Assembly (NCBI RefSeq): GCF_001677475.2
Contig: NZ_CP015229.1
Reading direction: 5' to 3' (one strand)
Origin: Escherichia coli
Lineage (GTDB): Bacteria; Pseudomonadota; Gammaproteobacteria; Enterobacterales; Enterobacteriaceae
DNA: 64,000 bases
This document shows positions 62,871 through 64,000 of this stretch, one piece after another. The number at the start of each line of letters is the position of its first letter. The first letter of the stretch is position 1. The position numbers and the translations under genes are program-made. A model generated the notes under the pieces. The model saw only the letters and a list, made by a program, of their open reading frames with translations, made no database searches and was not told the origin of the DNA.

Positions 62871-62918
62871 TGTCTGTATTCCTGCGTTCAAACTTAATGT
62901 GGTTGGAATGATATGTTA

Positions 62919-63818
62919 GGCAAGGCAACCGGGCTGGATATTAATATGCTGATTGCAGTCTCCGGTTTACTGATGACCGTCACCGTCTTCTTTGGCATTT
63001 CGGCGCTGACGGTTCTTTCGGTGATTGCGGTTCCGGCTATCGCCTGCCTGGGCGGTTATTCCGTGTGGCTGGCCGTTAACGGCATGGGCGGCCTGGACGC
63101 ATTAAAAGCGGTCGTTCCCGCACAACCGTTAGATTTCAATGTCGCGCTGGCGCTGGTTGTGGGGTCATTTATCAGTGCGGGCACGCTCACCGCTGACTTT
63201 GTCCGGTTTGGTCGTAATGCCAAACTGGCGGTGCTGGTGGCGATGGTGGCCTTTTTCCTCGGCAACTCGTTGATGTTTATTTTCGGTGCAGCGGGCGCGG
63301 CGGCACTGGGGATGGCGGATATCTCTGATGTGATGATTGCTCAGGGTCTGCTGCTGCCTGCGATTGTGGTGCTGGGGCTGAATATCTGGACCACCAACGA
63401 TAACGCACTCTATGCGTCGGGTTTAGGTTTCGCCAACATTACCGGTATGTCGAGTAAAACCCTTTCGGTGATTAACGGTATTATCGGTACGGTCTGCGCA
63501 CTATGGCTGTATAACAATTTTGTCGGCTGGCTGACCTTCCTTTCGGCAGCTATTCCTCCGGTAGGGGGCGTGATCATCGCTGACTATCTGATGAACCGTC
63601 GCCGCTATGAGCACTTTGCGACCACGCGTATGATGAGTGTCAATTGGGTGGCGATTCTGGCGGTCGCCTTGGGGATTGCCGCAGGCCACTGGTTACCGGG
63701 TATTGTTCCGGTCAACGCGGTATTAGGTGGCGCGCTGAGCTATCTGATCCTTAACCCGATTTTGAATCGTAAAACGACAGCAGCAATGACGCATGTGGAG
63801 GCTAACAGTGTCGAATAA
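62919..63818 (+). pseudogene. codB: CodB 3' fragment (C-terminal ~300 codons)
   Basis: Frame KATGLDINMLIAVSGLL... to ...HVEANSVE matches the CodB C-terminus; an in-frame ATG (62913) is supplied by the element end. Confidence 0.85.
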
Positions 63819-64000
63819 CGCTTTACAAACAATTATTAACGCCCGGTTACCAGGCAAAGAGGGGCTGTGGCAGATTCATCTGCTGGACGGAAAAATCAGC
63901 GCCATTGATGCGCAATCCGGCGTGATGCCCGTAACTGAAAACAGCCTGGATGCCGAACAAGGTTTAGTTATACCGCCGTTTGTGGAGCCGCATATTCACC
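63808..64000 (+). CDS. codA: cytosine deaminase (5' partial, runs off the window)
   Basis: GTG start overlapping the codB stop; [36 protein letters not shown]...; codBA operon. Confidence 0.85.

Follow-up and report, generated by a model that had tools for sequence, protein, structure and literature searches.

The window, by which we mean the whole 64,000-nt stretch of Escherichia coli DNA that was analysed, contains the cytosine permease gene codB in two pieces with a large element between them, and the cytosine deaminase gene codA begins close to its right edge (Table 1). The junctions were mapped against an uninterrupted prpDE-codBA-cynR locus (L002), which matched the window in three blocks. 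Window positions 35645-39132 and 39262-39836 aligned to the region upstream of codB and to the first 364 nt of codB, and positions 62919-64000 aligned to the intact locus from codB nt 361 onwards, so that the host matches on the left and right share an overlap of 4 bp (GGCA). The inserted element is 23,082 bp long and cuts codB at codon 121. The 5′ part of codB is collinear with the intact gene up to 39836, and at the right end the boundary between element and host lies at 62918/62919, with 62919 being the first base of codon 121.

Both pieces of codB could be recognized as parts of one protein family. The 5′ fragment matched PF02133 over profile positions 1-117 (E = 3e-29, Pfam), and the 3′ fragment, which carries 71% of codB, matched the same profile over positions 132-439. 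A contiguous CodB, an NCS1 permease with 12 transmembrane segments (TM) and 419 aa, is not encoded in the window, where the two halves are 23 kb apart. At the right junction, an ATG located 6 nt within the element DNA is in frame with codB. The original prediction stated that this ATG would read into about 300 CodB codons, and the alignment confirmed 299 native residues in the product. The nearest in-frame stop upstream of the ATG is a TAA at 62895-62897. The GTG predicted as the start of codA is also the codA start annotated in RefSeq, and it overlaps the codB stop by 11 nt, as in K-12.

Table 1. Coordinates of the features of the interrupted codBA locus and of the inserted element in the window.
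Feature	Position	Strand	Remarks
PurR box ACGGAAACGATTGCTT	39391..39406	+	Native codBA promoter region, ahead of the codB GTG at 39473
5′ codB fragment	39473..39844	+	GTG start; CodB 1-121 followed by Thr-Thr and TAG (39842-39844)
attL core GGCA	39833..39836		From comparison of the junction with intact codB (L002, L012) and attR
Defective prophage	39837..62918		PHROGs; ~90% nt identity to the head module of hicB-integrated E. coli prophages
-35 half (TTGACC, minus strand) of the predicted split attP promoter	39844..39849	-	Scan of the reconstructed attP
Leftmost element gene	39922-40227	-	Intrinsic terminator at 39880..39902 (-), 9-bp stem and T-run
IS3-family IS	58272..59500	+	1,229 bp; 38-nt imperfect terminal inverted repeats; orfA 58329-58613, orfB 58670-59482
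Large serine recombinase (integrase)	60012..61694	-	560 aa; phrog_95 integrase
137-aa ORF	61758..62171	-	N-terminal signal-peptide-like sequence; followed by a terminator at 61743-61714
128-aa gene	62484..62870	-	phrog_14908 (unknown function); followed by a terminator at 62470-62450
-10 half (TATCAT on the minus strand, ATGATA on the plus strand) of the predicted split attP promoter	62908..62913	-	Scan of the reconstructed attP
ORF of the 3′ codB fragment from the element-supplied ATG	62913..63818	+	301 aa; Met-Leu followed by CodB 121-419 (TM4-TM12)
attR core GGCA, host sequence restarts	62919..62922		Junction comparison
codA Shine-Dalgarno sequence GGAGG	63797..63801	+	Within the 3′ end of codB; -9.3 kcal/mol
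codA 5′ end	63808..64000	+	GTG start; the gene continues past the end of the window

The inserted prophage and its integrase

The body of the element encodes TerS, a Rha/Ant-like regulator, TerL, a head-tail joining protein, the portal, the major capsid protein and a truncated tail fibre, and these are followed by an IS, the remnant of a nuclease gene and the integrase module. The IS transposase was identified as NF033516 IS3 (E = 5e-101). In relatives and siblings of the element the gene order continues with a tail tube, a long 2.4-kb tail-region gene, a tail tip, an endolysin, a helicase and a 391-aa GIY-YIG nuclease. The element in the window lacks the tail tube, tape measure, tail tip, endolysin and helicase of its relatives; the IS occupies the place of the tail and lysis modules, the tail-fibre ORF terminates at the first TGA of the IS, and of the nuclease gene (391 aa in siblings) just the final 129 codons are left. 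At the point where the IS is found, sibling contigs either continue into an intact 391-aa nuclease gene or break. Because the tail, lysis and helicase genes have been replaced by the IS, the prophage is judged from its gene content to be defective, with an IS3-family-associated deletion as the cause. When the whole element was compared with GenBank phages by blastn, only T-even-like tail-fibre segments were matched.

The integrase has the features that define a large serine recombinase. It carries the catalytic domain PF00239 (Resolvase, E = 1e-15) with the motif YIRFSSMKQ intact at residues 8-16, and both PF07508 (Recombinase) and PF13408 (Zn_ribbon_recom) scored above their cut-offs. The identity between its att sites is short and insertion is site specific. 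GGCA is the core common to attL, attR, attB and attP, and it is the only identity between attB and attP, with no long target duplication. The reconstructed attP reads ...TTAATGTGGTTGGAATGATATGTTA-GGCA-CCACATAGGTCAATACCACCACAATAA..., and its arms are imperfectly dyad-symmetric, as expected of this class of enzyme, with the half-sites TTAATGTGGTTGGAATGA-TATGT and TTATTGTGGTGGTATTGACCTATGT. An unoccupied attB, ...CCGGTGGGCAAGGCAACC..., was present in an empty-site sibling with intact codB-codA. Recombination between attL and attR would restore codB, and the CodB reconstructed in this way is the intact protein of at least 24 contigs. Since the disruption was made by a serine integrase, it should be reversible in principle. 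Excision by enzymes of this class depends on a recombination directionality factor, for which no candidate was recognized; neither the 128-aa nor the 137-aa neighbour of the integrase gave a family or fold match.

The integrase was 97% identical to the codB-site integrase of E. coli strain 39EVA and 72-77% identical to relatives that use a site in hicB. Among GenBank phages the best tblastn match did not exceed 32% identity, and hence no characterized phage uses this integrase. The hicB prophages, which occur in many E. coli (for example in strains L3Cip3, DEC5A and PRO_A-1412-6M-A), belong to the same phage family, their head modules being about 90% identical at the nucleotide level, and have the same layout of the integrase module (integrase, small ORF and a 128-aa gene at attR) as well as a GGCA(A) core. 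They differ from the codB prophage in the target, which is hicB, and in the terminal ~40 bp of the attP arm, and no ATG is created at their attR. The integrases of the two groups are up to 96% identical in the catalytic domain, whereas the DNA-binding region (~169-390) is only 51-67% identical.

The scan of the reconstructed attP revealed a predicted promoter, TTGACC-16-TATCAT, with 10/12 matches, which would be directed leftward into the 128-aa gene, the first gene downstream. It is whole only in the reconstructed excised attP and is absent from the integrated attL and attR. In the hicB-type relatives the same attP-spanning layout was found with another sequence, TTTACA-18-TATAAT (11/12 matches). 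This promoter and the domain-level divergence of the codB- and hicB-type integrases were more interesting to us than the codB finding itself. The 128-aa product has no Pfam or NCBIfam family, and its homologues are restricted to Escherichia and Salmonella. Its AlphaFold model was of mediocre quality (pLDDT 64.7), and a Foldseek search against the PDB gave no match at E <= 0.001. The 137-aa ORF has no family in Pfam, PHROGs or NCBIfam.

The distribution of the insertion suggests that it is young. The exact integrase protein was found on 22 contigs, and the six integrase loci that were shown all adjoin codB′-codA-cynR-cynTSX-lacAYZ and are 100% identical to the window over 59501-64000. The prophage is complete in some of the sibling loci and breaks off at the IS, as in the window, in others. 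The site is empty in the loci L012 and L013, and L012 matches the window at 100% identity for 3,848 bp on the upstream side and 1,082 bp on the downstream side. The identical flanks and the unoccupied attB of L012 argue for a recent insertion that is polymorphic within one lineage (22 occupied versus at least 24 empty contigs). Assemblies that exemplify the three genotypes with identical flanks are GCA_019142445.1 for the empty attB, GCA_018683435.1 for the complete prophage and GCA_025810455.1 for the IS-deleted form seen in the window. Among 5,426 complete E. coli genomes the same insertion was present in one, that of 39EVA, and codB was uninterrupted in 5,220 of the 5,225 genomes that have codB. 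Thus, neither in the lineage nor in the species is the insertion stably maintained. In 39EVA the junction lies at the same nucleotide, but the body of the prophage is different and the host flanks are only 96.6% identical, which makes it an independent event at this nucleotide. The number of codB places per genome had a median of one (5,225 E. coli genomes), and 39EVA has a single place; from this, a second codBA copy is improbable.

The split permease and the ATG at the junction

The consequences for CodB were examined by comparison with the solved structure of Proteus vulgaris CodB (7QOA). The alignment with E. coli CodB is residue for residue and without gaps, and therefore residue numbers can be transferred directly. 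In the structure, Gly29 and Phe32 of TM1 form the conserved Na2 site together with TM8, and Gln105 and Trp108 of TM3 contact cytosine, with a dramatic reduction in transport in the alanine mutants (PMC9379551). All four residues are on the detached N-terminal piece, and the residues needed for activity are accordingly not found in the retained part. By alignment and hydropathy, the cut would fall in the short loop after TM3 and before TM4, leaving a C-terminal fragment of TM4-12 without TM1-3, and so without half of the bundle and hash motifs. As TM1-TM3 and the four critical residues are gone, the TM4-12 fragment cannot transport alone. Neither the two codB fragments nor codA had secondary lesions, which is expected for a recent insertion and is also compatible with continued use.

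It had further been proposed that a truncated CodB could be translated from the ATG supplied by the element. The in-frame ATG exists, and a minimal GGA 5 nt upstream makes some initiation possible, but the surrounding sequence gives little reason to regard it as a start that is used. When reading upstream from every possible element junction, the share of cases in which an ATG came ahead of any stop was 25% on the minus strand and 38% on the plus strand, and an in-frame ATG at the junction is for this reason unremarkable. Pairing with the anti-Shine-Dalgarno sequence upstream of the ATG was -3.4 kcal/mol, compared to -10.7 for codB and -9.3 for codA, and 40% of random positions in the window paired as well or better. 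Neither a promoter, in the promoter scan, nor a ribosome-binding site that rises above this background precedes the new start.

The sequence at the ATG can be accounted for in other ways. The ATG lies within the TATGT motif that is present in both attP half-sites, and its A is also part of ATGATA, the complement of the -10 hexamer TATCAT. The DNA around the ATG is then constrained by an integrase half-site and by a split promoter of opposite direction. The same ATG is present in 39EVA, which is explained by the att specificity common to both insertions and does not speak for selection on translation. An exact search for the 25-nt arm to the left of the ATG gave zero matches in IMG/VR viral contigs, GTDB species representatives and JGI metagenomes. 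We conclude that the ATG at 62913 is real but looks accidental. The 301-aa ORF is called as a gene in some of the sibling assemblies, whereas in 39EVA the fragment is labelled a pseudogene by PGAP. A second in-frame ATG, at 62946, reflects an L130M exchange in CodB; this was considered as an adaptation after the insertion and was rejected, as the same allele is found in the intact codB of unoccupied siblings.

Transcription of codA

The native promoter of the operon has remained with the 5′ fragment of codB, which keeps its own promoter and a strong Shine-Dalgarno sequence (-10.7 kcal/mol). PurR binds and represses codBA at its promoter (PMC3159470), and the PurR box in the window, ACGGAAACGATTGCTT, differs by one base from the K-12 codB-codA motif ACGAAAACGATTGCTT (PMC3159470 Table 1). 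The box now lies 24.4 kb from codA, in agreement with the predicted distance of about 24 kb, and the prophage separates codA from the PurR-controlled codB promoter. As predicted, codA is thereby cut off from its native promoter and sits behind leftward element genes; three convergent ones are nearest to the junction, namely the integrase gene, the 137-aa ORF and the 128-aa gene, all of which are on the minus strand. PurR-dependent control of codA is, as far as the arrangement of the locus tells, lost along with the promoter. Nitrogen control of codBA should also be lost with the native promoter.

The gene itself is unharmed. In the sibling loci that are 100% identical over 59501-64000, codA is intact and encodes 427 aa. 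A promoter scan found no sigma70-like site with at least 9/12 matches on the plus strand from 62069 to 64000, and transcription of codA must for this reason stem from weak or fortuitous promoters. The earlier statement that codA expression depends on fortuitous promoters was thus a fair summary. Further to the left, two plus-strand sites with 9/12 matches are found at 61951-61978 and 62041-62068, antisense to the element genes. From these two sites onwards there was no terminator-like site on the plus strand until one weak site at 63522-63535 within codB′, and the minus-strand terminators between the sites and codA have no T-run after them on the plus strand. A read-through transcript could therefore reach codA. 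Since codA has a strong Shine-Dalgarno sequence of its own, even low transcription could yield useful deaminase activity.

These observations bear on an alternative in which codA is adequately expressed from a cryptic promoter located within codB′ or in the final ~900 bp of the element. The loss would then be limited to transport, cytosine that arrives by other routes would be deaminated, and a high dose of 5-fluorocytosine would kill. The two weak sites, the open path to codA and its GGAGG sequence and intact reading frame all speak for such expression. AT-rich acquired DNA often carries weak promoters and tends to fire spuriously, and the end of the element is about 40% GC. However, the region contains fewer promoter-like sites than expected (4 found versus 9.5 in shuffled controls), a transcript starting there would run against the three convergent genes, and an internal codA promoter has not been reported in the literature that was searched. 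We consider adequate expression of this kind unlikely, although it has a better chance than any other competing reading. Our preferred reading is that codA is transcribed at a low and unregulated level, probably by fortuitous initiation in the AT-rich DNA of the element.

Interpretation and related systems

Taken together, the stretch from 62913 to 64000 is probably the attR of a serine-integrase prophage, with codB split, codA orphaned and the ATG accidental. In the proposed mechanism, a large serine recombinase would have inserted the prophage by site-specific recombination at the 4-bp GGCA in codon 121 of codB. CodB 1-121 remains behind the PurR-controlled promoter, CodB 121-419 and codA are left without a recognizable promoter, and the fusion of the orphaned 3′ part of codB to an ATG of the attP arm would be accidental. 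The lesion would be reversible only through precise excision mediated by the integrase. Any excision of this defective copy is putative.

A more far-reaching interpretation is that the prophage is a regulated switch, in the sense of active lysogeny or regulated gene integrity, with the IS-truncated copy as a domesticated, skin-like element. Pyrimidine salvage itself would be switched in this case: under certain conditions, excision by the integrase would regenerate codBA and re-form the attP promoter, thereby turning on the 128-aa gene, and the IS-truncated copy would be the cassette. Recombination of attL with attR would regenerate exactly the attB of the empty-site siblings, but a directionality factor was not identified. 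The integrase is intact though the virion genes are deleted, and yet the deletion resembles ordinary IS-associated decay. Re-formation of the promoter only in the excised attP, with its layout conserved in relatives that have different att sequences, would fit a switch; the rarity of the insertion in complete genomes and its polymorphism within its own lineage do not. Precedents exist in SPbeta/spsM (PMC5499854), comK (PMC7397523) and skin/sigK (PMC5025042), whereas codB is not a developmental gene and is absent from the regulated-gene-integrity candidates in the main text and supplements of PMC7192596. We hold a switch to be very improbable.

Even less likely is that the ATG at 62913 is used and that CodB′ matters, either through coupling to codA, whose start the codB stop overlaps, or by reassembly with the TM1-3 fragment into a two-piece permease. 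Bibi and Kaback reportedly found in 1990 that two pieces of lac permease, when expressed separately, can come together as a working transporter, and here the cut is in a short loop, both halves are undamaged, the N-terminal half retains its promoter and strong Shine-Dalgarno sequence, and some gene callers predict the 301-aa ORF; against this stand the weak Shine-Dalgarno sequence, the missing promoter and the chance-level ATG tied to att-site function, the unrelated expression control of the two halves, and a rare and polymorphic insertion with no sign of selection.

We return to the reading in which the prophage has simply split codB. The mechanism is negative lysogenic conversion by a serine-integrase prophage, an ordinary and well-understood kind of gene disruption at a previously undescribed site; codB was not reported as a prophage attachment site in the literature that was searched. 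The closest parallel is SPbeta in spsM of Bacillus subtilis, where the serine integrase SprA and the directionality factor SprB act and excision is developmentally programmed (PMC5499854). There, too, a large-serine-recombinase prophage splits a coding gene whose frame would be restored by recombination of attL with attR, whereas the gene hit here, in E. coli, codes for a transporter of pyrimidine salvage and the prophage copy is defective. In Listeria monocytogenes, phi10403S in comK likewise inactivates a gene by an intragenic prophage in a manner that is reversible by precise excision. The comK switch has been shown experimentally and is common in the species (PMC7397523), in contrast to the codB insertion, which is rare and polymorphic. 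Sa3int phages in hlb of Staphylococcus aureus also exert negative lysogenic conversion by site-specific prophage insertion, in their case by a tyrosine integrase and with well-documented excision dynamics (PMC12607152).

The finding matters little in itself: it is another case of a host gene inactivated by a prophage, with the polar effect that one would predict for the gene downstream. For annotation, it implies that what some pipelines call a 301-aa 'cytosine permease' is a fragment of a pseudogene and ought to be left out of transporter counts. The integrases of the codB and hicB sites pair up naturally, as their catalytic domains are almost the same while their DNA-binding domains have diverged and their att sites differ, and this pair is useful for work on target choice by serine integrases. 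For the strain, we infer that no functional cytosine permease is made and that purine- and nitrogen-regulated cytosine salvage is lost. The expected phenotype would be a loss, or at least a poor level, of CodB-mediated uptake of cytosine and 5-fluorocytosine. Depending on whether the prophage occupies the site, cytosine use and 5-fluorocytosine susceptibility are predicted to vary among strains of the lineage.

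Transcription at the prophage ends

A sigma70-like promoter, TTGACC-16-TATCAT, was found only in the reconstructed attP, the site of the excised circular element, and integration splits it; the observation also takes in loci L003 and L004. The hicB-type relatives, related prophages sitting in hicB, showed the same layout of the attP-spanning promoter, with a sequence of its own (TTTACA-18-TATAAT). The predicted attP promoter would switch on the 128-aa gene in the circular element only.

With its promoter intact, codB is now transcribed into the prophage at the left end. From 39473 up to the small-terminase gene no plus-strand terminator was detected, so phage genes may be read from a PurR-regulated host promoter.

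Features in the window
Feature	Coordinates	Strand	Remark
Tandem REP/BIME-like repeat units	39050-39320		between prpE and codB promoter
Read-in from codB promoter	39473-41079		
Halves of split attP promoter	39844-39849 and 62908-62913	minus	sigma70-like match across reconstructed attP
Small-terminase gene	40528-41079		
Distal part of tail-fibre gene	56163-58271		
IS3-family element	58272-59500		1,229 bp; 38-nt imperfect terminal inverted repeats
codB-site integrase	60012-61694		
137-aa ORF	61758-62171	minus	between integrase and attR-proximal gene
128-aa gene	62870-62484		
codB codon 130	62946-62948		

Gene content and integrase

The prophage was without the tail, lysis and helicase genes that sibling prophages carry. 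Its tail-fibre gene was cut off by the IS3-family element, which supplies the stop codon, and on its other side the IS borders directly on the remnant of a GIY-YIG nuclease gene, 129 codons from the 3′ end out of 391. The distal part of the tail-fibre gene showed 78-82% DNA identity to the genes for the long-tail-fibre distal subunit of T-even-like virulent phages of Escherichia and Yersinia, and this likeness suggests a mosaic of temperate and virulent phage. The 137-aa ORF matched no family and had a signal-peptide-like N-terminus (MKKIIAGIVLAMGLVGTANA); its product may be that of a secreted accessory (moron) gene.

Compared to the hicB-site integrases (L004 2573-4252 and L005 2503-4182), the codB-site integrase was up to 96% identical in the catalytic domain (residues ~1-168). 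Across residues ~169-390, which cover the recombinase and zinc-ribbon parts, identity dropped to 51-67%. In parallel with this drop, the attP arms differed between the two sites. The codB-site and hicB-site integrases form a natural pair with unlike target specificity.

The codB locus and host backbone

Codon 130 of codB was ATG (Met) in the window and TTG (Leu) in both E. coli sequences set beside it, the uninterrupted locus L002 (elppa4) and 39EVA, which has an independent insertion at the same junction. The orphan fragment, the 3′ part of codB read from an element-supplied ATG, thereby has another in-frame ATG 33 nt after its start. The empty-site siblings carried the ATG allele in an intact codB, so the allele is older than the insertion. 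The REP/BIME-like repeats contained one more unit (~94 bp) than in the empty-site sibling L012, a locus that is identical in other respects, and the region held additional sequence compared to L002.

Against a set of 5,426 complete E. coli genomes, the host backbone (1-39836 and 62919-64000) was unusually far from every member, with best matches of 96.4-96.9% for the first 25 kb (the bet, ehaA, hyxB and fdrA region) and 98.7% for codB′-codA. This distance suggests that the host belongs to a divergent Escherichia lineage.
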